Made by a program: the position numbers and the translations under genes. The notes below the pieces were generated by a model. It did no database searches. It was not told where the DNA came from and was given only the letters and a program-made list of their open reading frames with translations. A DNA stretch of 64,000 nucleotides from a virus. The stretch spans positions 48,038-112,037 of the IMG/VR virus record IMGVR_UViG_3300036893_000013. One strand, given 5' to 3'. Shown here piece after piece: positions 3,001 to 36,858 of this stretch. How positions within the stretch are numbered: the stretch's first letter is position 1; each line of letters starts with the position of its first letter.

Positions 3001-3630
3001 TCCTATTAACTGTTCTACATTACCATTAGGATCAATGATGAAGGAGTTAAGTTCATAAGGAGTAAAATTGTACGGATTCAAGACAGCGTATAAGTTGCCG
3101 TTCGCTACTGCAATTTCTTGAAGAACAGTGGAATAAGGGATTCTCGTTTGAAGGGTATTAACCCATTTCTTCTGATTAGCTCCATCCCCCCAAAATAGAA
3201 CGTTCCCCACACTCTGCATATAACTCTGTCCAGAATACGGACTTTTATTCCAGATATCTATCTGACCGTTATTTGAGGCATCATATAAGGCAGATTTGGT
3301 ATCCACCATAGTTTTTATTTGTTCAGTATTAGCATTGAATAATCTAAACTCATAAAAACCATTTATATTACTCCACGTGTTACTATTCCACACGGAATTC
3401 CCCGGACGGCGAACCACTGTAAGTCGTTGGCTGAGTTCCAGATTTTCTCCCCCAAGAAAGGCATCTCCTCTAGGCCCGTAAAATTTCTCTTCCAAACGGG
3501 TAGAAGCGGCATCTCGTATAGCTGCGCGGTTGCTCCATAGCCCAGTAGTCCATCTTGCCCCCTGATAAAGAGCAGACTTCCTAGAAGGGCGGGGAGGTTG
3601 GGCACCGGCTACTTGTAGAGGATTAGGCAT
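1..3630 (-). CDS. Tail nozzle / tail tubular protein B-like (P22 gp10/T7 gp12 type) with large repeat insertion; 3' end beyond window
   Basis: Missing from the ORF track, probably because it has no stop in the window. Manual translation from ATG 3630: MPNPLQVAGAQPPRPSRK...ENLELSQRLTVVRRPGNSVW; the frame is open in every segment checked, including at base 1. RRPG motif, QSVGNVLFWGDG..KKW and WNWG segments, five GxGYxVG(D/E) repeats. Confidence 0.7.
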   Translation of the reverse strand, partial: MPNPLQVAGAQPPRPSRKSALYQGARWTTGLWSNRAAIRDAASTRLEEKFYGPRGDAFLGGENLELSQRLTVVRRPGNSVWNSNTWSNINGFYEFRLFNANTEQIKTMVDTKSALYDASNNGQIDIWNKSPYSGQSYMQSVGNVLFWGDGANQKKWVNTLQTRIPYSTVLQEIAVANGNLYAVLNPYNFTPYELNSFIIDPNGNVEQLIGTVVQLSSFYIYNSTFVFTMRATDVNSNPLPTASQVLQSGLQLYFSGDSLVTQVLGSTSVTLTIENIVGPINTASLYFGGQGYTVGEIVSLSQTTPAGSMNGQVKVTSVGTSAGAGYINGSNVSTTTSGIGVNCTLNITTSGGSLTGATVAVGGTGYAVGDFIFPEETSGSGGYFQVATVSISAVTGVTLCTGVATAIAIQVAGQGYYSATNIPTTATSGTGLAVNIVSSGTQFSAEVPNTYAGGPLTSASVAASGTGYSVGEAIYPVVPVGSPASGAVFLVESINGIPATIGLVYQGISFTGYTAASGLATTTSGTGTLATFNILTVSGGQIATFSLGSGGTGYNVGDLVYPTQVSGAGASYTVSTVSGTTITGLTVHNAGYLPYTVASGVSTTTNGTGTGATVNITGVLVGGITAGTLGTAGTGYAIGDRLFPTQSGTSGTAQFRVASLTGSTGGVATIQITDVGTGYSTENGVATTAGISGTGCTVNIVALGSSYYPPTTDLEIPTVNSGGNPISSYTANNAVQWPLTEGTTTIDGSALWINRGSSVDGGIVWNWGMAGGSTAPNVIVNNAVSGWKANTYYNRWQFIIITVSGSKYLQQLVDSGVSGGTAPWTTSSTIVGQITTDGTAKWKCLSNDSDTTLTWAAHTIYSSGHIIEDTPGSTNCVYQLQPYTGIMTQGSNFPVYYWQCNSQKNSDVGAAGELPNGPPGSTFNTPMSQNGTQPVSTATGSGTMSSFFLSAQGGTNAVEVGVFSYGDGTLSGTLSTLFPSAMENLSIAMLPVFIIPAPGTYTFTFGHQVAMFWGIGNGSISLNVTNITVNNNEVTVQCDRTLASLVSVGVQLTFAGLSNATFLNGETVSIDSVSGMTFTAPLNHSNYGPAADVGTADSGATLVPSAIGPMTWNNSGNPNTYNFSTGTPIKGYKIMSANYPSSGLSIASSIVQVTFPAAGVYPAEIQYGVWYHSTSGETLPTTSPALPFANNTISFYMVYSPPGSTINYNV

Positions 3631-4847
3631 TAATGAATAGAACCACCTGAAATTTTTCCGTAAAGGCCACTATTAGTGGTGGCAGTGTTGATGGTATAAG
3701 CCCCATAAGAACTTACCGTTGAATCTGAAAGTGTACTTGTGCCTGCCACTACGTTAAGAGTAGTCACAGTACTATTGATAGTTATGGTATTACTTGATCC
3801 CGAAAGAGAGGTGCCGGTACTGCATCCGGTTCCCGCGCCGTTTGTTACTGGAGTTGTGCCATTCTCCGTATAACACATAATTGTAGTTCCAGAATTTGAG
3901 TTAGAACAGGTAACTGTTATGGAAGAACTTGAGACACCAGACCCGGGAGTACAGGTAGGAGCAGTTGCATTTCCACCGCTGTTCACGGTGTAACTGAAGT
4001 TATAAACCCAAAGAGGTCCGACTGTATTTCCATCAGTTCCAGCCGTAAGACCCACATAAGCTGTGTTCATGCTGCCGACGATTGACGGAATGTTAACGCT
4101 AGTCCATACATTATGAAAGCAAGTCGAAGAAGAGGTTGGAGTACACGTTCCTCCAGCAGTAATATCATAGAGATTTAGAGTGAAATTTGAACCATCATAA
4201 ATAACTGTGGCCGAATAAGTGTCTCCAGTCGTGGTGTTAACGGTCGTGGCTGGAGAATTTAATGGTACCGGAGAGGTACTGATCTTACTAGGAGTGTAGT
4301 CCGAGTTATACGGAGGAATACAAGGAGACTGACTAGCTTGATAAATCTGAGCACTGCTGTAACTGAATGGAAAGGGCCACACAGCACTAGATGACAGTGT
4401 ACTGATCTGATCGAGTTCTAGAGCAAAAACATTATTAGGTTCGGGAGGTACGAAAGCTTGATAAAATCCACCTTCGCATCCGGCCCCGGCAACGAAGGTC
4501 TGTCCTTGTGCTCCTCCCAGATTGTTCGTATTGTTCAGAGTGAAAGCAATATTGACACCGTTTGGTACGAAGGTAAAAGTAGAGGTAAAAGCTTGTACAT
4601 TAACGGCGTAGTAATAAATCAAACTTGAAGACCCATGCCCGGCTCCGTTAGGCTGCAAAAGAATATTACTACTTGAAACACTTGAATCTGAGTTATTGAA
4701 AAACTGGAAACCCGGATTTCCATATTGCTGTACACTACACGTTCCAGATGTCGCAGCAATCCAGTTTCCTTGTGTGCAACTGAATATTGACTGCGCCGAA
4801 ACAAGGGAACTGAAGCAAATAATGCCAAGAATGAGTAGTATTTTCAT
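3630..4847 (-). CDS. Secreted L-type (ConA-like) lectin-domain protein with C-terminal chitobiase/Fn3-associated domain
   Basis: Signal peptide MKILLILGIICFSSLVSA|Q; FTSTFTF..IAFTL, ALELD, AYVGLTAGT lectin motifs; CYTENGTTP; paralog of 18610-19875. Confidence 0.7.
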   Translation of the reverse strand: MKILLILGIICFSSLVSAQSIFSCTQGNWIAATSGTCSVQQYGNPGFQFFNNSDSSVSSSNILLQPNGAGHGSSSLIYYYAVNVQAFTSTFTFVPNGVNIAFTLNNTNNLGGAQGQTFVAGAGCEGGFYQAFVPPEPNNVFALELDQISTLSSSAVWPFPFSYSSAQIYQASQSPCIPPYNSDYTPSKISTSPVPLNSPATTVNTTTGDTYSATVIYDGSNFTLNLYDITAGGTCTPTSSSTCFHNVWTSVNIPSIVGSMNTAYVGLTAGTDGNTVGPLWVYNFSYTVNSGGNATAPTCTPGSGVSSSSITVTCSNSNSGTTIMCYTENGTTPVTNGAGTGCSTGTSLSGSSNTITINSTVTTLNVVAGTSTLSDSTVSSYGAYTINTATTNSGLYGKISGGSIH

Positions 4848-6272
4848 TTACTGTATTGTTGTGCCAGAATTATATACATCACCGGAGTTAAATGCACTAG
4901 CAGAGACACACCCGGGGGTTACAAGTCCGGTTGGTAAATTGGTGGAACATAGCCACTGCGGATAGAGCGGATCATACCGACTAGTATTTGAGACTGTCTG
5001 ATAGCCGTATGCTGCTGCTACAGAAGTTGGGGTAAAATTAGAAATTAGTGTAGCCATACACGCTACGGTACTCGCATACGAAGAACAAGATGGTGCTCCC
5101 GGAACTGTTGGATTACTAAACGAAACGGCTGTTCCGATGGTATTATTAGGACCATAAGCAAATGATCCTGAAGTATAAATTATAGTATTGTTTCCACTTA
5201 CTCCCGAAGCATATGTGCTGTACAAATGATCGGTCGCATTTCCGTTGCCGACAGCCATCGCGTAGATCGCATTACCACCAAGACCCGTAGCTGTCGATGT
5301 CTGGAGAAGGTTGTTCCAAGCCTGCACATTGTAAGCTGAATAAAGAAATAGTTCTCCAACATCTGTGCGATTTTGATGTGTATCCCGAAGATTACCCCAA
5401 GAGGTATTGTAAAGCATATACACATTACCTAGCGAAGAACCCACTGAATTATAAGGCACTTCAAGGCCGCTGCTGCCGTTCCCTACAGTAATATTGTTTT
5501 GTACAACGACTTGTTGAGAATATGGAGTACCACTCGACTGGGAATAATCTAATGAATCTACGATAATTCCTTCTCCATCTGTTGAACCTCCTCCATTACA
5601 GGTGGCAGGATCATAGTTGGCATAAGAAAAATTACCCGCAATATAGATATGAGTGCCGGGACTGGTGTCTTTAGCAAGAGGTTGATAGACACTTATACCA
5701 CTATAACAGGCAGTATTTCCCTGAGCAGCGTTATAAACTATATCCCCTACAATTGCAATGTAATCTACCGAGTAGCTAGTACCGTCATTAAATGTGGAAA
5801 ATCCACCTCCAATACAGCCGTTAGCTATATCGTCAACAAAGGCAACATCGTACACTTCTGAAGGTGTAGTTTGATTAGGGGAGGCCATAAAGCATCCTAT
5901 GTATTGCTGAGGAGCAGAAGAACCCTGAACTTCCCACCCAGCAATCATCCAATGCGGCTTATCTACCCAGAAGTAGCCCGTAGAACCACTAATGATACAG
6001 GCATCAAAGGTGGTACATTTAAGAGTGGCAAAACAGTGGCCTGACCCAGTAACCGCGCCCCATTCCCCTTGCCAGAAGTTCCACCCGCTATACGAAGAAG
6101 AAGCAGCGGCTGTGATTATATCACCACAATTAACGGCATGGTTTGGACTGAGCCAAGGTGTTCCGGTAGAGGTTCCGTTATTTGAGTCACTTCCCGACGG
6201 CGACAGATAGTAGTTTGTCGCAAAACAGGGAATGGCAAACAGAGATATAAATATTAGAAGATATCTTATCAT
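4848..6272 (-). CDS. Secreted right-handed beta-helix (pectin lyase-like, DUF1565-type N-terminus) protein
   Basis: Start moved to ATG 6272 (MIRYLLIFISLFAIPCFA|T); YYLSPSGSDSNNGTS..PW motif; DGEGIIVD, NNITVGNG coils. Confidence 0.7.
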   Translation of the reverse strand: MIRYLLIFISLFAIPCFATNYYLSPSGSDSNNGTSTGTPWLSPNHAVNCGDIITAAASSSYSGWNFWQGEWGAVTGSGHCFATLKCTTFDACIISGSTGYFWVDKPHWMIAGWEVQGSSAPQQYIGCFMASPNQTTPSEVYDVAFVDDIANGCIGGGFSTFNDGTSYSVDYIAIVGDIVYNAAQGNTACYSGISVYQPLAKDTSPGTHIYIAGNFSYANYDPATCNGGGSTDGEGIIVDSLDYSQSSGTPYSQQVVVQNNITVGNGSSGLEVPYNSVGSSLGNVYMLYNTSWGNLRDTHQNRTDVGELFLYSAYNVQAWNNLLQTSTATGLGGNAIYAMAVGNGNATDHLYSTYASGVSGNNTIIYTSGSFAYGPNNTIGTAVSFSNPTVPGAPSCSSYASTVACMATLISNFTPTSVAAAYGYQTVSNTSRYDPLYPQWLCSTNLPTGLVTPGCVSASAFNSGDVYNSGTTIQ

Positions 6273-8467
6273 TAGTTGTGCGCCATCATTCCAATCTGGT
6301 TGCCTGACCCCCACGATGCTGTTGGAATAGTGATTGTTGACGGTAGTTGCCCGTTTGTGGATGTTTGACTTACAGGCTGACTGGCATTATATGGGGTGAA
6401 ACCTTTCCACTCTTCGTCAAGATTAAGAACAGTGGCATTTCCGGTTACCGCCATATAATAATACTGACCGGCTGCTGGAGCAGTTAAAGTTACAGGGGAA
6501 GATTGGGTAATTGCCTGATCCCATTGACCAGTATGAGTTATGGCTACACCTTGAGAACCGGAACCAATATCAGCAACTAGAGGGCAACTTGTTCCACCTA
6601 GAGCACAAGGACCATAAATACCTATGTCGTAGTAATGTCCAGAAGTAGTGTCATCAGTAGAAACTTGGAAATCTAGATAAGAAATTTTCTGAGCGGTCGC
6701 TGGCCCGTTTACGATTACCCAAGTATAAACAGTTCCAGCAGTTCCTACTCCGAAACTTCCCTGACTGGTTGAACCCATTGAAATGGGCCAGATAGAAGCA
6801 GAAGTGGAACTTCCGCTAGCACAGTTTGCCACATAAGCATCTGTTGCAATATCAGTGTTACTTGCACAAGATTGTGTCGGAGCGGTAGGAGTTCCTGTAA
6901 GAGCAGGAGAAGCAGCAAGTACAACGTTGCCAGTACCAGTACTTGATACATACCCAATTGCCGACCATCCGCTAGATGGAGTACCTGCGGTCATGAACTG
7001 GGTTCCGGAAGGAGCAGTTGTACTCGGTTGCCATCCGTAAGCAGTAGCAGAAGTCGAGGAGAATCCACCAATAGCGAAGTCGTGTGTAGGGATAGTTTGA
7101 TTTGTAGTGTTACCACCTAAATACATCATACCGGCATCTCCAGAAGGGGGAGCAGAACCAATTGGTCCAGCGGAAGCTGTAATACCTCCGCTACCGGCGT
7201 ATGTTAAGGTATTAGCAGTTGTTGCCCCATCATCGAGGTTAGAATCCCCACTAACCGTGCTACCAGTTGACGAATACCATGTAATATGACCAGCATTTCC
7301 ACTACTAACCGTGCCCCCGCCTCCCACAAAAGTACATGTGGATATTGCACTAGAAGGAGTTCCGCAGCTTAAAAGTGGTGTCGAATTGGTGGGTCCAGTA
7401 GCTGGTAGCTGGAGAGCATAAGCTGTAAAAGAAGCTGACGAGGGTCCCATAAATCCAGTGGTATTCGAAGTAACGGCCTGATTTGCTGTATTGCCTATAA
7501 GAGAAATATATCCAGAATGCACACCGTCTGAAGTCGCTGAAACACCAGAACTAAAAGCCGCAGAAGTACCAGTAAGTGCTCCGGTTAAAGTGCCTCCTGT
7601 AAGAGGAAGATCGAGAGTGGCACTGTTAGCCACACACGAGGCGCAAGTACCAGTTAAGTTGGTAATTACTCCGGAAGCGGGAGTTCCTAACGCAGGAGTG
7701 ATAAGGGTAAGATTGGTTGCACTCAATCCACTAGGAAGAGTTGTGCTTTCGGAGGGAACTCCGCTGCCGTTAGTACTTACAACTGCATTATTTACAGGAG
7801 TAACTCCAGCCAAAGCCGAAGTAGTACCTGCGCTATATACGATTGAATTAGTAGCTAAGTTAGCAAGAGTACCGAGATTTGCTGCTGTTGCTGCGGTTGG
7901 ACCCGCACTTGTTGAATCAAATTGAAATCCGGAAATAGCCGATCCACCTACTTGAGATACTGTTCCTGTTTGTGTATACCACGTAACATCGTATTGGGGT
8001 TCAGCGGTTACTGTTCCTGATCCGGAAGGAGTTTGGCAAGCTCCATCTCCTCTGAGATACGTAGAGGAACTACAAGTTCCCGACCATAACCCATACACAT
8101 CCGCTGCGACTGCTATAGAAGGTACACCGGTAGTTGTAGTATTTTTTAAAATACCTGTTCCAAGGCCGGACAGAAGGGTTCCGTTAATACCTTTTACAGT
8201 AGTAGCACCCCCTGTAGAAGTACTGACAGCATCGCCAGTAAGGGCATTGAAGGTACCACTTCCACCAAAAGCTGTCCATGTGTTTGTTGCAGAACAGTAG
8301 TATGGAGATTCAATCCCACCAGAAAGCAGGTAGAAATTAATCACAGGACTACTAACCGAGCAAGTCGCGGGGAGACTAGAACCACTACCGTAACTTACAA
8401 CTCCGCTTTGTGGTCCCGTCTGCGCGAGAGCGGGGAGTGCGAAAAATAAAAATAAGAGTTTTTTCAT
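6272..8467 (-). CDS. Signal-peptide-bearing fibre-like virion protein
   Basis: MKKLLFLFFALPALA|Q; fibre motifs LTGDAVST..TVKGING, TYLRGDG, LPLTGGTLTGALT, SPALTGTPTAPT. Confidence 0.65.
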   Translation of the reverse strand: MKKLLFLFFALPALAQTGPQSGVVSYGSGSSLPATCSVSSPVINFYLLSGGIESPYYCSATNTWTAFGGSGTFNALTGDAVSTSTGGATTVKGINGTLLSGLGTGILKNTTTTGVPSIAVAADVYGLWSGTCSSSTYLRGDGACQTPSGSGTVTAEPQYDVTWYTQTGTVSQVGGSAISGFQFDSTSAGPTAATAANLGTLANLATNSIVYSAGTTSALAGVTPVNNAVVSTNGSGVPSESTTLPSGLSATNLTLITPALGTPASGVITNLTGTCASCVANSATLDLPLTGGTLTGALTGTSAAFSSGVSATSDGVHSGYISLIGNTANQAVTSNTTGFMGPSSASFTAYALQLPATGPTNSTPLLSCGTPSSAISTCTFVGGGGTVSSGNAGHITWYSSTGSTVSGDSNLDDGATTANTLTYAGSGGITASAGPIGSAPPSGDAGMMYLGGNTTNQTIPTHDFAIGGFSSTSATAYGWQPSTTAPSGTQFMTAGTPSSGWSAIGYVSSTGTGNVVLAASPALTGTPTAPTQSCASNTDIATDAYVANCASGSSTSASIWPISMGSTSQGSFGVGTAGTVYTWVIVNGPATAQKISYLDFQVSTDDTTSGHYYDIGIYGPCALGGTSCPLVADIGSGSQGVAITHTGQWDQAITQSSPVTLTAPAAGQYYYMAVTGNATVLNLDEEWKGFTPYNASQPVSQTSTNGQLPSTITIPTASWGSGNQIGMMAHN

Positions 8468-8470
8468 ATT

Positions 8471-9580
8471 TTAGTATCCGTAGTAATAGCCGTAATTAAA
8501 GGGACTTGCAGGACCAACAGGATAGAACGGACCTAAAACAGAATCTCCGGACATTTGCGTATCGGGGAAAATACTCCATGCCTGTTCTTCCCTCTCTCCT
8601 GCTCTTATAGCTTGCTCAATTTGTTCATGCCACATCTGATTCTGCATAGCTGCGCGGGGGGAATTAGCATGTTGAAGGCATTTAGCAACAAATCCTTCCC
8701 GGAAAAGATAAGCTAAATCATCTGGAACTGGAGAAATAGTCTGGTCTAAATACTTGAATCTAGGTGCTCTACGTTGGTAAACAATCCAAAATAACCAAGT
8801 AAATCCGCCTTCAGCAGGCAGAGGATTTACTCTTATAGCAAAGCCATTAGGATTAGCTACTGTCCAAGTAAGAGTACCGTCAGGTACCGTAGTACCCGGG
8901 GGCGAGGCGGGAGGAAGTTCCGGAGCAGTAGAACCCGAAGTTCCAAAATTAGCACCCGTACTGTTATAGGGATTAGGTGTCGGTAAAGGAATATTAGTCC
9001 CTTGATATCCTTGAACATTAGGAGTAAGGCCCATGATAGAAGTGTCTAGGAATAGCATGTTCCCATTAGCATCTACGATTTGTTGAATAGGAGTTTGCGG
9101 AGAACCAGAAGTACCATATCCGCAGTTGTATACTGTATTAGCAGTCCAAGTACCAAAATTACACTGGTTATTAGGTATAAAGCATACTATACTGGGATTT
9201 CCCTGATAAGGAGTAAGTCCCATGTCTCTATTAGTTTCCATAAGAAACAGTGGTTTTGGACAGAGATTGCCTGTATTAGTGTTATTATTGATATCAATTC
9301 TAAATGCTGACGTTAGCCAGCCCACGTCAGTTAGATTAGTAATATAGTCTTGCTGTAGAGAATTAGATAAGAATAAGGGAACATAAGACGCATTCCATCT
9401 CCAATTCAAACCTTGCGATAGAATTTTTTGAAGAACATCGTTAGCGAAGGTCAGCGCTGGTTCAAAAGTATAGCCACCCGCAGGAAGAATTGGATTACAC
9501 TCAGAAAAACTTCTAGCATAATCAACTACTTCCTGTAGGGTTATAGAGCTAGGTGGAACTAGATTTGGAAGAACAGGCAT
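8471..9580 (-). CDS. Head-tail adaptor / tail tubular protein A-like with inserted WxANTxY...DGTxxW module
   Basis: ITLQEVVDYAR N-terminus, WRWN..DY..GW, RVNPLP, VPDDLAYLF; paralog of 19876-20610. Confidence 0.6.
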   Translation of the reverse strand: MPVLPNLVPPSSITLQEVVDYARSFSECNPILPAGGYTFEPALTFANDVLQKILSQGLNWRWNASYVPLFLSNSLQQDYITNLTDVGWLTSAFRIDINNNTNTGNLCPKPLFLMETNRDMGLTPYQGNPSIVCFIPNNQCNFGTWTANTVYNCGYGTSGSPQTPIQQIVDANGNMLFLDTSIMGLTPNVQGYQGTNIPLPTPNPYNSTGANFGTSGSTAPELPPASPPGTTVPDGTLTWTVANPNGFAIRVNPLPAEGGFTWLFWIVYQRRAPRFKYLDQTISPVPDDLAYLFREGFVAKCLQHANSPRAAMQNQMWHEQIEQAIRAGEREEQAWSIFPDTQMSGDSVLGPFYPVGPASPFNYGYYYGY

Positions 9581-9588
9581 GGGTTTCC

Positions 9589-10260
9589 TTAATTAATCAC
9601 TGAACCTGTCAGGTTTTGTGGAGTGGGTGGAGTTGGTATAGAGGGGGCAGTAGCCACGACAACTGAAAAGGTATTACTAGGGGCACTTTGCGTACCCGCC
9701 GCGTCAACTGAAACTACGTAGTAATCATATGTAGTCGAAGCATCGATTGTTTTATCAGTATAGGTTGTAGTTTGTATAGCTGTTGGTGTCAGTTGTATTG
9801 CTGACCCTCCAGCAACAGATCGAAATACAAGGTACCCAGTTACAGCCGGAGTGCTAGTAGTAGGAGCTTGCCATACGAGTGATACACCACAAGCCGGATT
9901 AGGATCAGTAGCACAGAACAGAGCGGGAGTTACTGGAGTTACTGGGGTTACTGGAGGCGTTGTTCCCGCAGCATTGACCGTCAGCGTCAATTTCGTCGTC
10001 GTATAAACACCAGCCGTGGGCGTGGCCTGCTGAACCTCGATATTATAGGTTCCTGCTGCCGTTGGAGTACCTGAAAGAATTCCAGTGGTGTTATCGTAAC
10101 TTAATCCGTCTGCTGATATCTCCTGTATACCGTTAATTGTGACCAGATAACCGCCGTTTGAAACAGGTGCCGCAATAGCCTGACTGAAAGGTACCCCTAC
10201 AGTTGCGGTTGTGGTTTGAGCGTAAACAGTAGATGCCAGCAAAAATAGTATTAGTTTCAT
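9589..10260 (-). CDS. Secreted putative Ig + fibronectin type III protein
   Basis: MKLILFLLASTVYA|Q; GLSYDNTTGILSGTPTAAGTY (He_PIG-like); LVWQAP..GYLVFRS..YTD..YYVVSVD..SAPSN (FN3). Confidence 0.75.
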   Translation of the reverse strand: MKLILFLLASTVYAQTTTATVGVPFSQAIAAPVSNGGYLVTINGIQEISADGLSYDNTTGILSGTPTAAGTYNIEVQQATPTAGVYTTTKLTLTVNAAGTTPPVTPVTPVTPALFCATDPNPACGVSLVWQAPTTSTPAVTGYLVFRSVAGGSAIQLTPTAIQTTTYTDKTIDASTTYDYYVVSVDAAGTQSAPSNTFSVVVATAPSIPTPPTPQNLTGSVIN

Positions 10261-13200: not shown

Positions 13201-14474
13201 CTTTGAGTTGCAGAAGTAATGGTTGGCGTAAGAGTCGTGAACGTCGGGGCGTTCGTGATGTTGAAAACTTGGGAGAGCGAGGACCCGGTGTAGTTAGTCG
13301 CGATGATGACCAGTGTGTTTGAAGAAGTTTGTTGATACGCTGAAACTGTAACTCCGCTTTGCGGGTTGTGCGTAGCACTAATACGGTAGTAGCCGGGTCG
13401 AACGAATTTGCTGTACTGTGCTAATACGTAAGCCCTATCTGCAACCGCATATCCGCTTGCAGCATTGGCTATAAGCGAGCCGTTGCTTGTTGTTCCTGCC
13501 CCTCCAGCCTGATTGAAGTCGATTAGCTGCCAGAAAAGCCACATGTTAGCTCCATCTTGCATCCGCTGATCGATGATCGCACCCCAACACAAACCGTCTG
13601 AAATCGTGGCGGTGAAGCTTGAATACGAACCGCACGCCGGACCATAGCTGGGACCTTGTGATGCTTCTGTTTCCCACCATTTCTTTCCGCTTGCCCAACC
13701 CGCAGGATAAGTGGCAGGACTTACTGGAGGTACTCCACCAGAAAGAAAAGCATCGTAATCGTGCCAATCTGCGACTCCAAGATAAGTCGTGCAGGAGGGG
13801 TCTGTACCGCAAGTTCCACCACTCGATGATACCGCACTGTACTGGTAAGAAGTGGGCATGAGGATTAGTGCCGGGATGCTTTGGGAAGCGAAGGTCGGTC
13901 CTAGATTAGTTTTGATAAAAGTATCGATGTTTCCCGAAGACCATAAGGCACTGTCATACGTCTCGCATTCTTCAGGCTCGTTTTGGACTCCCATTCCGTA
14001 TAACTGAATACCATAGTAGGTCGAGAGGCTTTTGTAGAAGTTTGCGCCCCAGATTGCGTAGTCGCCGTAATGTCCAGATGCAAGTGCTCCTGAACCGGGA
14101 TTACATATTGTGCTGTTATTGGTGGTATATATGGCGGGCGGGGACCAAGGATGAGAGATAATTCTCACGTTTTGAGATGCAGCGTACTGCAAGTCGGCAA
14201 TTACAGATCCAGCGCATCCAGAATTAACAGTCGTACAACTTTGGCCGGGACCATCCTGATGGCCATTAGTCTGCCCTATCCGCAAAACTGACAAACCGAG
14301 TTGCCCTGTTCCATTTCCGAAGAAAAATTGCTGGTGTGCATTAGACATGGAAGTAGTCCAGCCTTCGTTCGAACCACCGAAGCCATCGATTATCTGGGCT
14401 GGGGCAGTCCAGTTGATGGTGGCCTGTCCAGCAAGCGAGAGCGGAAAGAGCAGCAGAAGTATAAGTCTTTTCAT
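10257..14474 (-). CDS. Secreted multidomain GH30 glycoside hydrolase + beta-helix + InlB-B-like repeats + chitobiase-C domain
   Basis: Start moved to ATG 14474 (MKRLILLLLFPLSLAG|Q); QIIDGFGG, PWSPPA, QNEPE (acid/base), WETE (nucleophile), YSKFVRPG; second domain GDIISIPAGTCTW; GYxFSGW repeats. Confidence 0.8.
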   Translation of the reverse strand: MKRLILLLLFPLSLAGQATINWTAPAQIIDGFGGSNEGWTTSMSNAHQQFFFGNGTGQLGLSVLRIGQTNGHQDGPGQSCTTVNSGCAGSVIADLQYAASQNVRIISHPWSPPAIYTTNNSTICNPGSGALASGHYGDYAIWGANFYKSLSTYYGIQLYGMGVQNEPEECETYDSALWSSGNIDTFIKTNLGPTFASQSIPALILMPTSYQYSAVSSSGGTCGTDPSCTTYLGVADWHDYDAFLSGGVPPVSPATYPAGWASGKKWWETEASQGPSYGPACGSYSSFTATISDGLCWGAIIDQRMQDGANMWLFWQLIDFNQAGGAGTTSNGSLIANAASGYAVADRAYVLAQYSKFVRPGYYRISATHNPQSGVTVSAYQQTSSNTLVIIATNYTGSSLSQVFNITNAPTFTTLTPTITSATQSIQQLANITVSSQSFTYTIPAQSITTFVSTGSTPTNYSLVVTATNGTISGANCATGTYASGTSIGPCTFTPSAGYTFSSGWSGTGSCSGVSGTGTASCTLSSNATLSASGTSTGCGNYTAASCNQSDVNSAINGPAHIACNGDIISIPAGTCTWTTDVVVTASIDITGPNAGANTGTSTFGSGSNTLTIKSNNPSGPIWFLQPTYNGTSNVTKLESMNLDPINGSTSLGGVVFIEGTSTSAGFPQVRVDNIGFGISTQWTESGNGDNTVDMIRVDDAIGVVDHSTLPTGSLSNHLYTAQMSSYLGVGQFGDNSWAQPDSFGGLTNWFAENNQVNLNGSTFNDCTEAGITVNQSGGCRVVNRFNHSIGYNAFAYTAVHGTDSTGRPRSGRHTETYGNVLTCTLNCGDAVVSFRGGTGIAFGNTGISSGGAYFNQIMDGTTYRIALANPFFGTCGGLTSIDPGDTVDNVTYVSSTLTGGGTTTITDTSKSWTTNQWAPYGAPYFFYDTTQSFGAQITSNTNNTLTMYAEINNGASYNPGDTYKIIRATVCEDQWGRGQGAYISGAAVPTPTAPMNEVLDPAYEWDDTITPASFLGQQFGTNYAGQTIQNRDFYTDDWKAGGLSGPTAQTSTTVPFNGSTTCNAGSGNYTCGVGFGALANRPSSCTTGVGYWATDQGNWNSSGNGFGQGELFKCTSTNTWTIAYIPAQYPHPLIGGSTLVSLTVSTSGSGTGTITGTNSLTGSYTSGTTIGPLTATATGGSTFAGWTVSGNAACSGTTNPCPSFVLTTATTVTATFTGGTSTCGNPYQNPPNYSGTYSTPPVSVSWTSPTSGCSMFMTLDGSAPTCSSPAYAAQSFSTTTTMRVIACQAGYTSSAVEGGTWVITSGVSLTTIASNGYITGTNCATASYVSGTLIGPCTPVANPGYAFSGWSGASGSAVCVGTINPCPQFSLNQASTFTANFSSVPLPPPIGLSGNLIAKQVQLK

Positions 14475-16504
14475 TATTGTAAAGCCACACTCACGTTGAT
14501 GAAATTTTCCGTGGTCCCAGTCGTCCATGTTGGGGTATAGAGTCCCGCTGATGCCTGCGTATAATGACCTCCCGCTTGGGTGGCTCCTGCCGAATTGGTT
14601 GCGTTTATATCGAACGAAAAAGGAGATGGAGCACTAAGAGCTACCCCAGCCCCTATTCCAATGAACGTGAGGACTAGAGAATTTGCTGCGGTAGTAGTAA
14701 GGGAAGAACCTGTACAACTGGACGAGCAGGAGGCCGTGCCGTAACTGGACAGCACGATCCCTGTTGTCGTGGCATTTGATATCTGTTCTAAGACTCCACC
14801 CATCCCAGCATAAGAAGTTGAGGTTCCTGATACTGTGACCGTACAAGAACCGGTGACATTTGCAACCCCTGTCCAGATTGACTGGCCCGAGGACCCGGTG
14901 GTTGGTGAACCCTGTGCAGTCCAAGTGGGTACACAACCTGAAGGCGTGTTCCATGCTGTAACGTTAATTCCAAGACCCCAAAGTACCAGCGTATTTCCAG
15001 TCGTGATTGATAATGTGACCGTGCTAGACGGATTTACACTGTAGGCTCCTACCACACCAGCAGCAGATACAAAAGTCGGATTACCGCCCCCTCCACCTGA
15101 TCCTCCACCAAGCACAATCCAAGTTCCGGAAGACCCATTACAAGCAACGAAAGCAAAATTTGATCCGCCACTAACATAAGTAGCACCAGAAATAGCGGAT
15201 GTTGAATCTGTAACTGTTGCGGTGGGCCAAGGTTGAGACATGCTACTGCTACAAGTAGGAATAGGATTTGATGAGGCATTGCCAGCGGTGTATGATATGA
15301 CACCGGGACCTGTACCAGCTATAACTACAGGAACATGGGCAGTCAGATCACCACTGTTGGTAATATTGTAATCGAAGGGTAGATATGAAGTGGCTGTTGT
15401 AGCTGTAGCCGCCATAACTCCATACCCGGCAATTTGGCCGGTAATAGAACCTGCGGGAGTACACCACGTACCGTTACCACACCAGACAGTTGAACCAGAG
15501 GCTCCGGTTCCCCCATTAAAATTAGCTATTTGTAGATTTCCTGTAACTCCACCAGCACCCGTCCCAGCTAGGTTAATTGCGGGAATAACCGAGGAGTTCA
15601 ACAATCCACTTGAAAGCTGTGGAATGTCTGAGCCTGAATTACCGACAGTATAACTTGTTCCCCACCCAGAACCAGTTGAGTTTGCAAGTCCGGCCCCGGG
15701 GTAGGTTGAAGAGGCGCAAGAAGAACAAGAAATACTAATACCTAAAGCAGTGGTGGTAATAGAAAGGGGAGAGTTGGCAGTAATATTTGTGCCTATATAG
15801 CTACCCAGATCATATAGTTGAGGAGCTATTAGACTTCCGGTAGGTTCTTCTCCTAGAAAATAAGCATGTCCAGTAGTGGTCTGGCCCGATACATAGGATG
15901 TAGTGTTAGCGCTGGACTGATAAGGAATAGAGCCTAAACTACCCCCAGCTAGTCCTCCGGCATATCCAGTGGTATTAGCACCATTGTTAGGGATATCTCC
16001 TGAAACTAAAGCTCCATAATTAGGAACACCGGCAGACCCAGTATGATTTCCCCATATATAATGAGCAGAAGTACTACCTAAAGAGAGGGTAACTCCTCCG
16101 ACAGAATCATTATTAGTGTAAAAACTTCCATCGCCGGAAACCGAACTAACTCCGGAACCAGAACCCCCTCCAGTATTACCAATCTGAACAATGGTATTGT
16201 TGCATTGACTATATGAAGAACAAACTTTCTCAACCACTCTTGTTCCGGTCTGAACGTAGTAACTATATACTCCGAATGCATTAGCAGGAAAAGGTTGAGT
16301 TAAAGGAGCGGTAAGTGCCTGATCAGAATAAACTGTTTGCGGTGTAGAACATTGTGCCAGCGAATTATATGTACAAACTGATATCTGAGCATTTGGGATA
16401 ATAGTAGCATAGTTACCGCCAGATTTGGTTATAGCAGTATTCCATCTCTGGGCAGACTGGCCTAGAAGCATGGTAGGAAATAATAGCAGCAATAAGTATT
16501 TCAT
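14474..16504 (-). CDS. Signal-peptide-bearing tail fibre/spike-like protein
   Basis: MKYLLLLLFPTMLLG|QSAQRW; N-terminal IPNAQISVC..YSDQALT..QP..ANAFGVYSYY domain shared with next gene; fibre motifs GSIPYQS, GVTGNL..NGGTGAS. Confidence 0.65.
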   Translation of the reverse strand: MKYLLLLLFPTMLLGQSAQRWNTAITKSGGNYATIIPNAQISVCTYNSLAQCSTPQTVYSDQALTAPLTQPFPANAFGVYSYYVQTGTRVVEKVCSSYSQCNNTIVQIGNTGGGSGSGVSSVSGDGSFYTNNDSVGGVTLSLGSTSAHYIWGNHTGSAGVPNYGALVSGDIPNNGANTTGYAGGLAGGSLGSIPYQSSANTTSYVSGQTTTGHAYFLGEEPTGSLIAPQLYDLGSYIGTNITANSPLSITTTALGISISCSSCASSTYPGAGLANSTGSGWGTSYTVGNSGSDIPQLSSGLLNSSVIPAINLAGTGAGGVTGNLQIANFNGGTGASGSTVWCGNGTWCTPAGSITGQIAGYGVMAATATTATSYLPFDYNITNSGDLTAHVPVVIAGTGPGVISYTAGNASSNPIPTCSSSMSQPWPTATVTDSTSAISGATYVSGGSNFAFVACNGSSGTWIVLGGGSGGGGGNPTFVSAAGVVGAYSVNPSSTVTLSITTGNTLVLWGLGINVTAWNTPSGCVPTWTAQGSPTTGSSGQSIWTGVANVTGSCTVTVSGTSTSYAGMGGVLEQISNATTTGIVLSSYGTASCSSSCTGSSLTTTAANSLVLTFIGIGAGVALSAPSPFSFDINATNSAGATQAGGHYTQASAGLYTPTWTTGTTENFINVSVALQ

Positions 16505-18309
16505 TAGTTTCCTAGATACTCCAGCTTATAGTGAACATCGTAACTTATGGTTCCGCTGGCCGTTACTAACGGAGTAATAGTAGTATTTACGGCTGCGTAG
16601 AAGACGGCACTGTACTGGTCCCACGCAGGAGCACTGGACCAGATATCGTTCCAAGTAAAGGTGTTGCCCGAAGTATGGGCATTTTGATAAGTAACTGTTA
16701 AAGTAGTATGGGGCGAACTAGTTTCACTAACCGCATTTACATAATATGTAAACCGATACATACCTGCTACGGGGGTGGCGTAGCCGGAGGGAGCATAAGT
16801 AGTTGTCTGAGCGGTAGCAGATAAAGATTGCACTATAGAAGAACTTGTGTATTGACTTATTGGAAAACCAACATAACTGCTGCCGTTCCAATAACATAGA
16901 TTTATTTGATTTGAGAAGGTTCCACCACCAACACTGCAATCAGTTGGAGTTTGACCGTCTGATACGAAACTTACCGATTGGTAAGCTGATCCCGGATTTG
17001 GTAGTCCCGCTATGTTTGTAATATAATTTAGGTTCGGCCAGTTAGGACTTATACCTAATGTATTTAGTGTAGAATTGTAATATAATGGGGGTTGAACTAG
17101 TAAATTTGAACTGCTTGGGGGAGCAGTTCCTGTATAATGAACTTCAAGACCCATTAGGGGAATATATATACTGCCCTGTCCATTACAGCAGCGGGAGGCA
17201 TTCATTTGAATAGCTGAATAGTTTGTAGGTAGGGCACTAAAAGCAACAGAAACTTGCCCCAACGGATAGTCTAGAGCAGGCTGTGAAGCTCCATTAACTC
17301 CTTGAAGCATAGAAGCTCCACCGGGGATGGTTCCGCCACCAGCACTATTTACCCACATACCCTCGAATTCGGAGTTTGCCATGCTAGAGGCTGATATCAT
17401 AAAAGCATATACAGCCGTTATGTTAGATTGAGTAACATAAGAAGGTAATGTAAAATTCGATACCGTAATACCAGAACTCCCTGTACCGTCTACAAGTCCT
17501 CCAAAATATTGTCCAGCAGCATTCTGATAGCAAATAGGATTCGCACCTATACCAGTGTTGGTAATTGTACAACTTGTTCCAAATACTAGCACGTACTGGC
17601 CTGTACCTTGTGGTACATATTGGGTAGCTAAGTTGGAAGCTGCTACATATGCACTTAAATCTCCTCCACTATCGCTTTGGAAAGTTACAGCTACATTTCC
17701 TGTTGGAGGGGTTGGGGTAGTATCATTAAAGTTCAGCAGGACTTGATCTGTAAGATTGGTTCCATTATGCTGTAAAACAAGTTGTTTAGCGCACCCGGAA
17801 GTAGTAGCTCCTCCTAAAGAATCTATACAGAGAAGAGAACCAGAAGAACCTATAGTCCCAGATGAGAGTAGTTTACTGTCAGTTCCTTGAACACTATAGC
17901 TACTTCCCCAAGCTGTACCTGTAGAAACGGGAACTCCCGCTGGGGGATAGACCATACTTCCATTTCCGGTATTGCCTATATAAACATCGTAAAAACTACA
18001 TTGATTATATGGCGCACATACTTGCTCAACTACATGAGTTCCGCCATCGACATAATAGCTATATACCCCTACTCCATTTGCAGTAAGAGGTTGAGTAATT
18101 CCTTGGGTCAAAGCCGGGTCAGAATATATAGAAATTTGACTTATACAATTAAGAGAAGAGTTCCATTCACAAACTGTAATTTCTGCGTTGGGAATAACAG
18201 TAGAAAAATTACTGCCTGAAGCAGGTACCGTTGCTGTACTCCATCTCTGGGCAGACTGACAAATTCCGGAAAGTGGAAAAAGTAGAAACAACAGCAAAAG
18301 CTTATTCAT
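16504..18309 (-). CDS. Signal-peptide-bearing tail fibre/spike-like protein (N-terminal paralog of 14474-16504)
   Basis: MNKLLLLFLLFPLSGIC|QSAQRW; IPNAEITVC..YSDPALT..QPLTANGVGVYSYY. Confidence 0.65.
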   Translation of the reverse strand: MNKLLLLFLLFPLSGICQSAQRWSTATVPASGSNFSTVIPNAEITVCEWNSSLNCISQISIYSDPALTQGITQPLTANGVGVYSYYVDGGTHVVEQVCAPYNQCSFYDVYIGNTGNGSMVYPPAGVPVSTGTAWGSSYSVQGTDSKLLSSGTIGSSGSLLCIDSLGGATTSGCAKQLVLQHNGTNLTDQVLLNFNDTTPTPPTGNVAVTFQSDSGGDLSAYVAASNLATQYVPQGTGQYVLVFGTSCTITNTGIGANPICYQNAAGQYFGGLVDGTGSSGITVSNFTLPSYVTQSNITAVYAFMISASSMANSEFEGMWVNSAGGGTIPGGASMLQGVNGASQPALDYPLGQVSVAFSALPTNYSAIQMNASRCCNGQGSIYIPLMGLEVHYTGTAPPSSSNLLVQPPLYYNSTLNTLGISPNWPNLNYITNIAGLPNPGSAYQSVSFVSDGQTPTDCSVGGGTFSNQINLCYWNGSSYVGFPISQYTSSSIVQSLSATAQTTTYAPSGYATPVAGMYRFTYYVNAVSETSSPHTTLTVTYQNAHTSGNTFTWNDIWSSAPAWDQYSAVFYAAVNTTITPLVTASGTISYDVHYKLEYLGN

Positions 18310-18601
18310 TCTTTTTACCCTTAAGGATGTTTAATATATCAGTAATACTGCCCGATGCCCTGTTAACTCCATAAGGAGCAGTAAAGAAAAGAACCAGCGC
18401 AGAAATTATTAAAGGAATTGCCGCTAACCATGAGTTGAGTATAACCACATCCGTGATTTTTATTATGTGATCAAATACTTCTATAAGGATATAAGATGAA
18501 ACTATAGCAAGAATTGTACTTAGGACACGACTACTCGATCCATTTCCGTTATCTGAATACACAGATTGGAAAAAAGCACAGAATTTACTTAGAAAGTTCA
18601 T
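18302..18601 (-). CDS. Putative holin
   Basis: 99 aa, two hydrophobic helices after SSSRV motif, basic C-terminus. Confidence 0.5.
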   Translation of the reverse strand: MNFLSKFCAFFQSVYSDNGNGSSSRVLSTILAIVSSYILIEVFDHIIKITDVVILNSWLAAIPLIISALVLFFTAPYGVNRASGSITDILNILKGKKNE

Positions 18602-18609
18602 AAATTTCC

Positions 18610-19875
18610 TTACGGTAGCGTGACTGTTTGCGCGGGAATGGTAACTGTAATGGGACTTCCGCTCGTCTGAATTGTCAGTGTTTGGGCTGGAATACTTAAA
18701 CTGGCGGGTAGGGTTACTGGAATGTTGATCGTGTAGGACACTATCGAGGTTGATGATTCGGTGTCGCCGGGTGCCGTTGCATAAGCTGCGATGCTTTCGT
18801 TCTGACCTACTGTAAGCGGCTTGGTATAGATCGTCTCTGCTGCGCCGTTGACACTGTAATAGATGGTTGCGCCGGGAGTTGTGTCCGAAATAGTGACTGT
18901 TTGTGCCAAAGTGTAAGTGCCCGGTCCCGGTAAAAAAGTCGGTGTATCAACCGTTGGTGCAGGGGCTGCAACAGAACCCGTTGTATAACTGAATTGACGG
19001 ATGACAAGAGGGGTAACGGCTCCGTAAGGAGTATCCGAAGTGCCTGCTGTTAATCCGGCATAAGCTGTACTTCCACCTACCAACGAAGGAATGTTTACGT
19101 TGGACCAAGTGTACGTAAAACATCCAGACCCGGGGCACGATCCACCAGCACTTACATCGTAGAGATTAAGCGTTACATTTGAGCCGTCGTAGCTAATAGT
19201 TGCTGAATAGGTGTCCCCTGTACTTGTATCACTTGAGGATACAGGAGAATTCAAAGAAACAGGAGCGGTGCTGATTTTGCTTAGAGCGTAATCAGTAGAG
19301 ACTGGAGCGGGGATACACGGCGATTGATTACTTGAGTAGATTTGTGTGCTACTGTGACTAAACACAAAAGGATACGGAGCACTTGCTGATAGGGTGCTGG
19401 CAGAGTCTAGTTCAAGAGCAAATACATTATTTGGCTCTGGGTTAGGTGGTGTTTCCTGATATCCGAATGCCTGATAAAATCCCGCTTCGCATCCTGCTCC
19501 AGCCGTGAAGGTTCCACCCTCTGCTGAATTTGTACCCGGCTGATTATTCGTGTTATTCAGAAGAAAAGCCACGTTAGCCCCATCTGGAATAAACTCAAAG
19601 CTGGCAACGAAATTGTTGACAGGTAGGGGTTTCTGGTATATAAGTGAAGTCGATCCATGACCAGACGGCAGTCCAACCATAGTCAAAGCTGATCCAGATA
19701 TACCTGAATTGTTCTGTGGTGAATTTAGATAGAAGGGAAAGTTTCCAAACCCACCTTGTACACTAACAGCACAAACTGCTGCGGGGACTGTATTAAAGCC
19801 AGAACAATTAAACCCGGTCTGACCATACACATACACAGGAAGAGATAGTATAAAAAGTAGTATAAAATTTTTCAT
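18610..19875 (-). CDS. Secreted L-type lectin + chitobiase/Fn3-associated domain protein
   Basis: MKNFILLFILSLPVYVYG|Q; AGAGCEAGFYQAF, NNVFALELD shared with 3630-4847; TPTFLPGPGTYTLAQTVTISDTTPGATIYY. Confidence 0.75.
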   Translation of the reverse strand: MKNFILLFILSLPVYVYGQTGFNCSGFNTVPAAVCAVSVQGGFGNFPFYLNSPQNNSGISGSALTMVGLPSGHGSTSLIYQKPLPVNNFVASFEFIPDGANVAFLLNNTNNQPGTNSAEGGTFTAGAGCEAGFYQAFGYQETPPNPEPNNVFALELDSASTLSASAPYPFVFSHSSTQIYSSNQSPCIPAPVSTDYALSKISTAPVSLNSPVSSSDTSTGDTYSATISYDGSNVTLNLYDVSAGGSCPGSGCFTYTWSNVNIPSLVGGSTAYAGLTAGTSDTPYGAVTPLVIRQFSYTTGSVAAPAPTVDTPTFLPGPGTYTLAQTVTISDTTPGATIYYSVNGAAETIYTKPLTVGQNESIAAYATAPGDTESSTSIVSYTINIPVTLPASLSIPAQTLTIQTSGSPITVTIPAQTVTLP

Positions 19876-20610
19876 TTAGCTTCCGCTACGACCTTGACGA
19901 CCAATTGCTCCGGTCTGGGACACAGATTGTGTTTCTCGTTGATAAATCAAATGTGGAAATAGAAAGATATTTTTCTGAGTTTCAGAAAGTCCTTCAGAGG
20001 CAGCAATAACTTGTTTAAGAAACTCCTGATGAGCAAAGGCAAATCTTTCATCGCCTTTATATTCATATGTTTTGGCTAAGTAGCCTTGGTTATATATATA
20101 AGAATAATAATCGGGAATGGGCGACCAAGTATCAAAAACAGTACCGAAAGTTGGAGACGATTGTTGATATAAGATATTTAGAACATAGGCTTTATCAGGT
20201 ACAGGCATCAATCTGAAAGTAATATTGCCGTTGTTATCGTCAAATACTGGTGAGATATAGGCAGGTTGTCCTAACCTAGTTTCACCGACTAACGCCATGT
20301 TAACTTCAAGCTCTTTGGAATAAAGGACTTGGTTGCCATCGGTATTAGGAGGAAATACTATGGTAGCTTTTTCAATCCAGCCAAAATTAGATACAGTAAC
20401 TTGATAGTCAGAAGTACCCGGTTCACAAACTATAGGAGGTACTGCTGCTCTATTCCAACGCCAAGCGAAGGGGGGAGCTAACATAAATTGACGTACCCAA
20501 TCGCCTATTGAATACGCCAATGCCCCACTATTCACGTAGAGTAGAGGGGCATTATAGATAAACCGAGAAGTAATATCTATCGTTGTTTTTAACTGGATCG
20601 AGGATGACAT
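19876..20610 (-). CDS. Head-tail adaptor / tail tubular protein A-like
   Basis: FAWRWN..GTSDY..GWIE, FRLMPVPDKAY, IPDYYSYI; position downstream of capsid cluster. Confidence 0.6.
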   Translation of the reverse strand: MSSSIQLKTTIDITSRFIYNAPLLYVNSGALAYSIGDWVRQFMLAPPFAWRWNRAAVPPIVCEPGTSDYQVTVSNFGWIEKATIVFPPNTDGNQVLYSKELEVNMALVGETRLGQPAYISPVFDDNNGNITFRLMPVPDKAYVLNILYQQSSPTFGTVFDTWSPIPDYYSYIYNQGYLAKTYEYKGDERFAFAHQEFLKQVIAASEGLSETQKNIFLFPHLIYQRETQSVSQTGAIGRQGRSGS

Positions 20611-35521: not shown

Positions 35522-35597
35522 TGGCTCGCCCCGCTGGATTCGGACCAGCATCTCCAGAATTAACAGTTCTGTGCATTGCCAGTTATGCTAGAGGCAA
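35522..35597 (-). tRNA. tRNA-Asn(GTT), T-loop variant
   Basis: TTGCCTC TA GCAT AACTGGCA ATGC A CAGAA CTGTTAA TTCTG GAGAT GCTGG TCCGAAT CCAGC GGGGCGA G CCA; G73; C at position 55. Confidence 0.85.
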
Positions 35598-36769: not shown

Positions 36770-36858
36770 TGGTCGGGGTAGGAGGACTCGAACCTCCAGT
36801 GCTCTTAAGCTCCTGTTTCCAAAACAGGTCGGCTACCATTTACCGATTTACACCCTCG
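36770..36858 (-). tRNA. Atypical tRNA-Pro(TGG) with long variable arm
   Basis: Anticodon arm CCTGT-TTTGGAA-ACAGG, T arm GGAGG-TTCGAGT-CCTCC, G72/A73/CCA; variable arm AGCTTAAGAGCACT; irregular 5' acceptor/linker. Confidence 0.7.

Follow-up and report, generated by a model that had tools for sequence, protein, structure and literature searches.

Predicted export of cysteine-rich spike-like and lectin-like proteins and putative glycan enzymes encoded among the tail genes of an uncultured soil phage

Introduction

Does a tailed phage always build its receptor-binding and glycan-cutting proteins in the cytoplasm, or can it pass them through the export machinery of its host first? The textbook view is that every part of a tailed phage folds and is assembled in the reducing cytoplasm; the particles are put together there, and their fibres normally carry no signal peptides. 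The question is raised by a 64,000-nt stretch of phage DNA (hereafter the window), which comprises bases 48038–112037 of the 112,037-bp IMG/VR record IMGVR_UViG_3300036893_000013 (estimated 98% complete). The source is an uncultured 112-kb soil phage, probably with an acidobacterial host. All late genes of the window lie on the minus strand, and twelve of them form what we call the tail slot, in the order adaptor 1, SP421, a 99-aa holin-like protein, SP601, SP676, SP1405, SP223, adaptor 2, SP731, SP474, SP405 and a nozzle-like protein. The eight proteins designated SP begin with leaders of the Sec type. A first reading of the sequence alone (the sequence-only reading) had taken them for a virion appendage module exported for oxidative folding and docked on particles around lysis or, alternatively, for a means of remodelling the infected cell surface or matrix.

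The closest cultured relative is the Tunturiibacter phage Tunturi_3 (PP885686), a podovirus of an acidobacterium, with which the window shares 35–36% identity in the portal and 35% in the major capsid protein (MCP). The portal is of the SU10 type (Pfam PF23899, E 8.6e-27), and Tunturi_3 has homologues of both adaptor paralogues and of the nozzle-like giant. For comparison, related loci were collected from IMG/VR around homologues of adaptor 2. Positions are given in window coordinates unless stated otherwise.

Signal peptides of the tail-slot proteins

Leaders were called with our own heuristic for the n-, h- and c-regions and the −3/−1 positions (positive n-region, uncharged h-region of 7–15 residues, small residues at −3 and −1, no lipobox) together with inspection, by which the cut sites were also read. 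All eight proteins passed (8/8): each carries 1–2 Lys/Arg, an uncharged hydrophobic run of 11–14 residues and a small −3/−1 site, and none has a lipobox. The starts that had been proposed for these eight late genes were all real ATG codons of minus-strand open reading frames (ORFs). Two of them, at 6272 (SP474) and 14474 (SP1405), are internal to longer ORFs and were accepted as the right starts because they overlap upstream stop codons. Among ORFs of at least 200 aa, the heuristic flagged 8 of 9 in the slot vs. 1 of 42 elsewhere in the 112-kb genome (Fisher p = 1.2e-7), the sole outsider being an N-terminal membrane anchor.

The predicted cut is followed by Gln at position +1 in seven of the eight proteins, the exception being SP474 (A/TN; the slash marks the cut here and below), and in 26 of 30 leader-flagged proteins of the related loci. 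As a sample of a host secretome, 20 stretches of 20 kb (400 kb; L033–L052) of the Tunturiibacter gelidiferens chromosome (G001) were inspected, where Gln occupied +1 in about 18 of 22 leaders of the signal peptidase I type, as counted by eye. Gln at +1 is the published 'Bacteroidetes Q-rule' (PMC5837995), a paper in which Acidobacteria are never mentioned, and a follow-up in mBio stated that the rule does not apply to other phyla (PMC10653852). Contrary to the latter, the rule appears to extend beyond Bacteroidota. The T. gelidiferens genome yielded no type-I glutaminyl cyclase (PF05096). Since Gln at +1 is shared with the presumed host group and the exception, SP474, matches its own cellular family, the phage leaders appear to copy host export signals in detail.

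Leader conservation in homologous phage contigs had been named beforehand as a check, and it held throughout: when the window's leader proteins were compared with other loci by BLAST, each of the 30 matches was itself leader-flagged (30/30). In related loci with an upstream flank (e.g., L004/L005 and L007/L008), the corresponding position is likewise occupied by large, Cys-rich ORFs with leaders. The phage was not found to encode a DsbA, thioredoxin or signal peptidase of its own and would therefore rely on those of its host. Taken with the cysteine pattern described below, the eight proteins are very probably genuine substrates of Sec and signal peptidase I, and their export is predicted with good confidence.

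Two further small proteins with a leader cut before Gln are encoded outside the slot. One, of 119 aa (38407–38766, minus strand), consists largely of a long Pro-Thr repeat and has no Cys; the other, of 143 aa (38805–39236, minus strand), has 7 Cys and repeated YYNYGNN motifs, with no match among PHROG families.

Cysteine content and oxidative folding

The mature forms of SP405, SP474, SP731, SP223, SP1405, SP676, SP601 and SP421 contain 10, 12, 12, 2, 36, 14, 12 and 6 Cys, respectively, an even number in 8/8 (p = 0.004). The sequence-only reading had counted four of these (10, 12, 2 and 6 for the 405-, 731-, 223- and 421-aa proteins) correctly, and the evenness thus extends to the whole set. 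Cys makes up 2.17% of the leader proteins vs. 0.64% of the other late proteins. As had also been observed correctly, MCP and portal have 1 and 2 Cys, respectively, and no leader; the ejection-type giants encoded downstream (1794 and 609 aa) have none at all. The same parity was seen in relatives cut before Gln, in which mature Cys counts were even in 24 of 26 proteins (p = 5e-6), vs. 57 even and 61 odd counts among leaderless proteins. In the paralogues SP421 and SP405, which are 51% identical, five Cys columns align exactly and the sixth is two residues off.

A natural control for the link between leader and Cys is provided by L025, where a 171-aa leaderless copy of the N-terminal module described below, devoid of Cys (L025:9446-9961), lies directly upstream of a leader-bearing 994-aa member of the same family (hhalign probability 97%). 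This copy may serve as a cytoplasmic stub, a dock or a decoy. Host-like leaders, their conservation, Cys parity and this Cys-free leaderless copy together support the proposal of export for oxidative folding well at the sequence level. We consider it very likely that the eight proteins are exported, cleaved and folded with disulfides in the periplasm by host machinery.

The N-module family and spike-like proteins

SP601 (601 aa; 16504–18309, minus strand; leader GIC/QS) and SP676 (676 aa; 14474–16504, minus strand; leader LLG/QS) begin with a common leader and about 95 residues of 57% identity, after which they diverge. This N-module, which has four conserved Cys in SP601, is followed there by a Gly/Ser linker and a variable part of 480 aa; SP676 has a different C-terminal part. 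A profile of the N-module searched against 1.84 billion representatives gave at least 719 clusters with E up to 1e-3, almost always with the match at residue 1 of proteins of 400–2600 aa. Of the 150 best representatives, 138 passed the leader heuristic; their Cys content was near 2%, and the module has one invariant Cys pair. When the N-module was used as query in a word-indexed search, the only match returned was the query itself, and tblastn against 50,697 cultured phage records gave no match. Members were found on contigs of about 100 kb and in genomes of Tunturiibacter gelidiferens, an Acidobacteriales metagenome-assembled genome (MAG) and a Ca. Acidiferrales MAG.

A structure model of the N-module of SP676 (pLDDT 78.7) found its best PDB fold matches in tail-complex chains of Pan3 and Pam1 and in the N-domains of the Sf6 and P22 tailspikes (Z 7.8–9.3). 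Foldseek gave E 4e-3 against PDB and down to 3e-6 against BFVD, where the named matches were of the phage tailspike/pectate-lyase type. Kinship with the N-domain of the Tunturi_3 fibres gp14/gp15 was considered and rejected (hhalign probability 0.07%), and a C-terminal tail ('LTGSVI'-like) that we suspected four window proteins to share was dropped, as it was not seen across relatives. The C-terminal part of SP601 is a mosaic of segments in common with other family members; a model of the full-length protein was unusable (pLDDT 36.7). The member in L028 combines the module with a GDSL esterase and a weak K1-lyase match at its C-terminus.

SP731 (731 aa; 6272–8467, minus strand; leader ALA/QT) is rich in Gly, Ser and Thr and fibre-like in composition. 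It matched nothing in Pfam or PHROG; stretches of its fibre shaft (55–66 aa) are 64–85% identical to internal parts of the N-module family members P0045, P0034 and P0075. The earlier suggestion that three of the eight proteins carry tail-fibre motifs was thus borne out, for SP601 and SP676 by the shared N-module and for SP731 by these shaft segments.

Gene order points in the same direction. The arrangement of adaptor 1, leader proteins with an N-module member first, adaptor 2 and nozzle is kept in phages whose portals are 47–50% identical and whose G+C content ranges from 0.46 to 0.61. In L022 and L025/L027, exactly one large leader protein occupies the slot, and the flanks examined contained no further large gene for a fibre or spike. 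The fibres of SU10 are encoded in the same slot (PMC9509320), as are those of Tunturi_3. Synteny therefore argues for a spike character of the N-module proteins, and SP601, SP676 and probably SP731 look like proteins of the spike or fibre type.

Composition of the slot

Every start in the slot abuts or overlaps the stop of the preceding gene in a taATG arrangement, and for this reason the twelve genes probably form one coupled late transcription unit. The slot opens with tail adaptor 1 (244 aa; 19876–20610, minus strand), which has no leader and 1 Cys. It matched the Pfam family SU10_adaptor (PF24175, E 8.7e-7, 30 bits vs. a cut-off of 27) and is 31% identical to Tunturi_3 gp13; its copies in relatives (44–53% identical) lie just upstream of leader-bearing genes. 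Adaptor 2 (369 aa; 8471–9580, minus strand), also leaderless, is a paralogue linked to adaptor 1 by BLAST, is 34% identical to Tunturi_3 gp12 and has copies of 40–85% identity in seven related loci.

The five remaining leader proteins look different in character from the spike-like ones. SP474 (474 aa; 4848–6272, minus strand; leader CFA/TN) is a right-handed beta-helix of the Pel9A/DUF1565 type without an anchor domain. It has 693 homologues, 48–66% identical over the full length, most of them unnamed metagenome proteins; those that are named or lie on contigs of 0.5–2 Mb include chromosomal proteins of Silvibacterium and Acidobacteriaceae MAGs. Most homologues inspected have a similar leader and mature start, the cellular ones starting near A/T-x-Y-F. 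The Atlas structure of SP474 reached TM 0.90 to a cluster of 475 aa, whose commonest phylum is Acidobacteriota, and 0.69–0.73 to Pel9A-like clusters; Pfam gave no match at E 0.01. On these sequence and fold relations, SP474 is a captured host-type secreted beta-helix protein and a predicted enzyme.

SP1405 (1405 aa; 10257–14474, minus strand; leader LAG/QA) comprises a GH30-like barrel, a central Cys-rich region, InlB B-repeats and CHB_HEX_C, that is, domains of kinds common in bacterial glycanases. The GH30 assignment comes from PF02055 (E 2e-5, 24.2 bits vs. a cut-off of 23, over 100 residues only), with PF17189 falling under its cut-off; further Pfam matches were PF18998 (E 5.7e-13) and PF13290 (E 2.9e-9). 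A leader is present on each of its phage homologues, in L009 (465 aa), L026 (845 aa) and L007 (1038 aa).

SP421 (421 aa; 18610–19875, minus strand; leader VYG/QT) has an L-type-lectin-like domain with its 6 Cys, followed by CHB_HEX_C/Fn3_assoc (PF13290, E 2.8e-10), and residues 282–397 are 37% identical to gp17 of another phage, Tunturi_1. SP405 (405 aa; 3630–4847, minus strand; leader VSA/QS) is its lectin paralogue with an additional 4-Cys C-terminal domain. The nearest Atlas clusters of SP421 combine Lectin_legB, CHB_HEX_C and Fn3_assoc and are bacterial, some from Acidobacteriota (score 0.93, features only). No lectin family match was found for either protein in Pfam; the lectin likeness is an Atlas feature similarity of 0.93 and not an alignment, and by such protein-language-model features alone the pair most resembles bacterial lectin architectures. 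SP223 (223 aa; 9589–10260, minus strand; leader VYA/QT) consists of an Ig-like region and an fn3 domain (Pfam E 2.9e-4, under the cut-off), and PHROG tail and decoration proteins match its fn3-like residues 67–210. PDB sequence searches with SP421, SP474 and SP731 gave no usable match.

Overall, SP474, SP1405, SP405, SP421 and SP223 look like secreted proteins of the host type (glycan enzymes, lectins and Ig-like proteins) that lack an anchor. As no anchor module was found on SP474, SP1405 and the lectins, we do not file them as virion appendages. The earlier description of the whole set as an appendage module thus overreaches; only SP601, SP676 and perhaps SP731 look like spikes or fibres. 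The cargo of the slot turns over quickly between close relatives.

Two more genes complete the slot. The 99-aa holin-like protein (18302–18601, minus strand) has, by eye, two hydrophobic segments and a charged C-terminus; copies of 59% identity occupy the same position in L007 and L009, and in close relatives the gene is kept just before the N-module genes. It matched no Pfam or PHROG family, and no endolysin was identified within the window. The nozzle-like protein, of which the first 1210 of 1799 aa lie in the window (1–3630, minus strand), closes the slot and has no leader. Its N- and C-terminal thirds are 36–46% identical to Tunturi_3 gp19, which that record names 'head decoration protein', and a nozzle-like gene also follows adaptor 2 in L004, L007, L022, L025 and L028; the 1210 aa inside the window had no Pfam match. 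Its putative identity as a nozzle comes from gene order, SU10-type neighbours and the gp19 homology in place of a family match. Of the interleaved genes named in the sequence-only reading, adaptor 1 is supported by Pfam, adaptor 2 by paralogy and homology, and the nozzle by order and homology; the nozzle and the holin have no family match.

The nozzle-like gene contains, at about 1500–2800 (minus strand), at least six repeats of a domain with a G-[TQ]-G-Y-x-[VI]-G-[DE] motif, which may be a glycan-binding array; L022 and L025 have shorter nozzles that lack this insertion. Two small leaderless proteins are encoded immediately to the left of the window (G000:C1:45623-46205, minus strand), one of 121 aa with no Cys and the other of 71 aa with 1 Cys. 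Their homology is limited to the N-terminal parts of the Tunturi_3 fibre proteins gp14/gp15 and gp20, and they resemble 'anchor-only' stubs, the distal parts of these fibres being absent from this phage.

Assembly route and alternative explanations

The explanation that we tentatively favour, at somewhat less than even confidence as a whole, is as follows. The eight proteins would be threaded by Sec into the periplasm, cut mostly before Gln and folded with disulfides by host machinery, and all would build up there until lysis opens the inner membrane. At that point the spike-type proteins would attach through the N-module to particles that are complete except for their spikes, and the anchorless enzymes and lectins would be released free to cut or bind the exopolysaccharide matrix of the host. 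In P22-type phages, addition of the tailspike is the last and a spontaneous assembly step, which can be carried out in vitro with spike-less heads; docking at lysis would be feasible for the same reason. For SP601, SP676 and perhaps SP731, we put such docking just short of an even chance. For the anchorless enzymes and lectins, free action on exopolysaccharide once released is the most likely role. Remodelling of the matrix or surface, the alternative offered in the sequence-only reading, is nearly as likely as docking and probably applies to part of the set.

Several points weigh against this explanation. Because particles assemble in the cytoplasm, docking needs the two compartments to mix, and the time window for mixing may be seconds only. 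The leader calls come from a heuristic and inspection. Tunturi_3, the closest cultured relative, has fibres of its own (gp14–gp18) without leaders, and the window phage has leaderless candidates for host binding in the repeat-rich nozzle and the small proteins homologous to the N-termini of Tunturi_3 gp15/gp20. In the two chromosomal N-module loci that could be read (L019 and L020), the gene is solitary with no phage genes adjoining, so the module must also work without a virion. The fold evidence for the N-module is moderate, since generic beta-sandwiches (carboxypeptidase-regulatory, CnaB, teneurin) reached Z 7.5–7.8, within 1–1.5 Z of the phage anchors. Furthermore, a 1523-aa leader-bearing N-module protein is encoded outside the slot, between portal and scaffold, in L016 (L016:7989-12560; also in L015 and L012). 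The L016 genome also has an 866-aa member inside the slot.

Alternatively, all eight proteins may be exported and none become part of the virion. The set would then be a free cassette of periplasmic or extracellular glycan enzymes, lectins and domesticated tailspike-like proteins, comparable to WceF of Pantoea. It would thin or remodel exopolysaccharide or destroy the receptors of the dying cell, letting progeny get away instead of being lost to debris, and the particle would recognise its host through the nozzle and the small leaderless proteins. We regard this as a serious possibility, if not a probable one. It fits the membership of SP474 and, by Atlas features alone, of the lectin pair in anchorless families common in Acidobacteria chromosomes, the bacterial glycanase domains of SP1405, the solitary chromosomal N-module genes, the large repeat insertion in the nozzle and the quick turnover of cargo between close relatives. 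WceF itself offers a precedent (PMC7949094) and appeared among the fold matches of the N-module. However, it leaves L022 and L025/L027 with the leader protein as the only large gene in the fibre slot, and a constant N-module combined with distal parts that vary is what marks receptor-binding proteins carried on particles. Additionally, leader-bearing tail-end proteins of Cellulophaga phage phi10:1 have been labelled structural from tandem mass spectrometry (MS/MS).

It is improbable that the leaders are not used to export a pool of virion proteins at all, i.e., that assembly is cytoplasmic, the N-terminus serves as a transient membrane tether or as a substrate of a phage protease, and the Cys stay reduced until release. 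That would be the textbook route, it would agree with the finding of no phage-encoded DsbA, thioredoxin or signal peptidase, and signal-like N-termini on Porphyromonas phage capsid proteins have been read as prohead-protease substrates (Matrishin et al., PMC10367356). Yet the leaders copy the host pattern down to Gln at +1 and cellular homologues have the same leader, and both the even Cys counts and the joint loss of leader and Cys in L025 are hard to explain without oxidative folding. Display of the fibre-like proteins on the surface of infected cells or on vesicles, like the MAT fibres of Bdellovibrio, as decoys, adhesins or a means of superinfection exclusion, has the chromosomal N-module genes of Acidobacteriota in its favour and is very unlikely, as an outer-membrane targeting signal, lipobox or C-terminal domain of the type IX secretion system (T9SS) was found in none of the eight proteins, the genes are late and locked between tail genes, and a lytic phage would gain little from late surface display.

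With less assurance than for docking in this one phage, we extend the favoured explanation to a clade of Acidobacteria podophages, in which the last step of virion assembly might take place outside the cytoplasm, with exported, disulfide-bonded spikes snapping on at lysis and the exported pool also stripping the matrix. If true, the assembly pathway would gain a compartment and a timing step through a conserved Sec route for receptor-binding proteins, and such a route would explain how soil phages obtain disulfide-stabilised spikes. Recombinant production of such spikes or depolymerases would then call for expression in the periplasm or under oxidising conditions. Leader-bearing proteins might otherwise be dropped as non-structural by annotation pipelines. 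An acidobacterium that obeys the 'Bacteroidetes' Q-rule also bears on the spread of N-terminal pyroglutamate capping.

Host and further features of the genome

A Bacteroidota host, which Gln at +1 and a G+C content of 43% had suggested, was dropped because the N-module family occurs in Tunturiibacter, Acidobacteriales and Acidiferrales genomes, the named relatives of SP474 are Acidobacteriaceae, and Tunturiibacter itself shows Gln at +1. No match to Por_Secre_tail or a related Pfam family, as expected of Bacteroidota T9SS cargo, was found in any of the eight leader proteins. Proteins encoded at the two ends of the record (window 63262–63594 and G000:C1:30-299) share a stretch of 34 aa with 97% identity. 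This points to a terminal repeat or to a complete genome that is circularly permuted. Among the head genes lies a gene of the histidine phosphatase family (23123–23737, minus strand; PF00300, E 1.4e-33), kept at the same place in the related phages L004, L022, L025 and L028. Genes for tRNA-Asn and tRNA-Pro and an adjoining HNH/NUMOD4 homing-endonuclease-like gene occupy 35522–35597, 36770–36855 and 36958–37836. In the early region, G000:C1:13333-13641 encodes a 102-aa protein whose leader is of the lipoprotein type, with a lipobox that ends in Cys, and which may be a spanin or an exclusion lipoprotein.

Comparison with known systems

Our literature searches turned up no description of tailed phages that route their tail fibres or tailspikes through Sec. 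To our knowledge, the known anchor proteins of podoviruses are made without a signal peptide, fold in the cytoplasm and do not have the conserved Cys pair. In architecture, the resemblance is close: the anchor domains of P22 gp9 (1lkt/8tvr), Sf6 gp14N (7sg7), Pam1 (7eeq) and Pan3 (9vyg) are, like the N-module, beta-sandwiches of about 100 aa at the mature N-terminus, followed by a linker and a swappable distal part, and the proteins occur as several paralogues per genome with their genes beside adaptor and nozzle. However, they have no detectable sequence similarity to the N-module.

Exported proteins of similar build are found in bacteria. WceF of Pantoea stewartii (6tgf; PMC7949094) is an exported bacterial protein that retains a P22-type head-binding domain on a glycan-cutting body; it thus exemplifies a head-domain module working without a virion, parallel to the solitary acidobacterial genes of L019 and L020. 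Unlike the proteins described here, it is chromosomal, is encoded in an exopolysaccharide gene cluster and not in a phage tail operon, and has a twin-arginine translocation signal, by which it is exported folded. The MAT fibres of Bdellovibrio bacteriovorus (PMC10769870) share with the set a signal peptide, a conserved beta-rich N-domain of about 130 aa, a long fibre, a variable adhesive tip and many paralogues. They are proteins of a predatory bacterium, and the likeness is one of architecture, with no sequence relation seen. Among phages, Matrishin et al. (PMC10367356) described Q-rule leaders on genes of unknown function in phages of Porphyromonas gingivalis and read the products as envelope modifiers. 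These also copy the Gln at +1 pattern of their host, but the host belongs to Bacteroidota and no tail parts were named.

Two cultured phages show leaders of this kind themselves. Tunturi_1 (PP887698) infects the same host genus as Tunturi_3 but belongs to another lineage than the window phage. Its gp12, gp13, gp14 (tail spike), gp16 and gp17 start with leaders, and Cys counts are even in the four leader proteins with a readable cut, and in gp14 after removal of the presumed leader Cys; the main text of the Tunturi paper (PMC11924767) contains neither 'signal peptide' nor 'mass spectrometry'. In Cellulophaga phage phi10:1 (KC821618), gp091–gp094 are labelled 'structural protein' in the record on experimental MS/MS evidence, all four leaders (4/4) are cut before Gln, and the next gene, gp095, encodes a leader-bearing pectate lyase. 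No paper commenting on these leaders was found. The MS/MS label is the only experimental hint that leader proteins travel with particles, and co-purification is possible. In contrast to the window phage, phi10:1 is a siphovirus of a marine Bacteroidota host, its leader proteins have 0–2 Cys, and no sequence similarity to those of the window was found. Like the window phage, it encodes consecutive leader-bearing tail-end proteins cut before Gln, and it does so in culture. Since Tunturi_1 and phi10:1 are both cultured and show the same feature, the question raised by this locus can be addressed directly.

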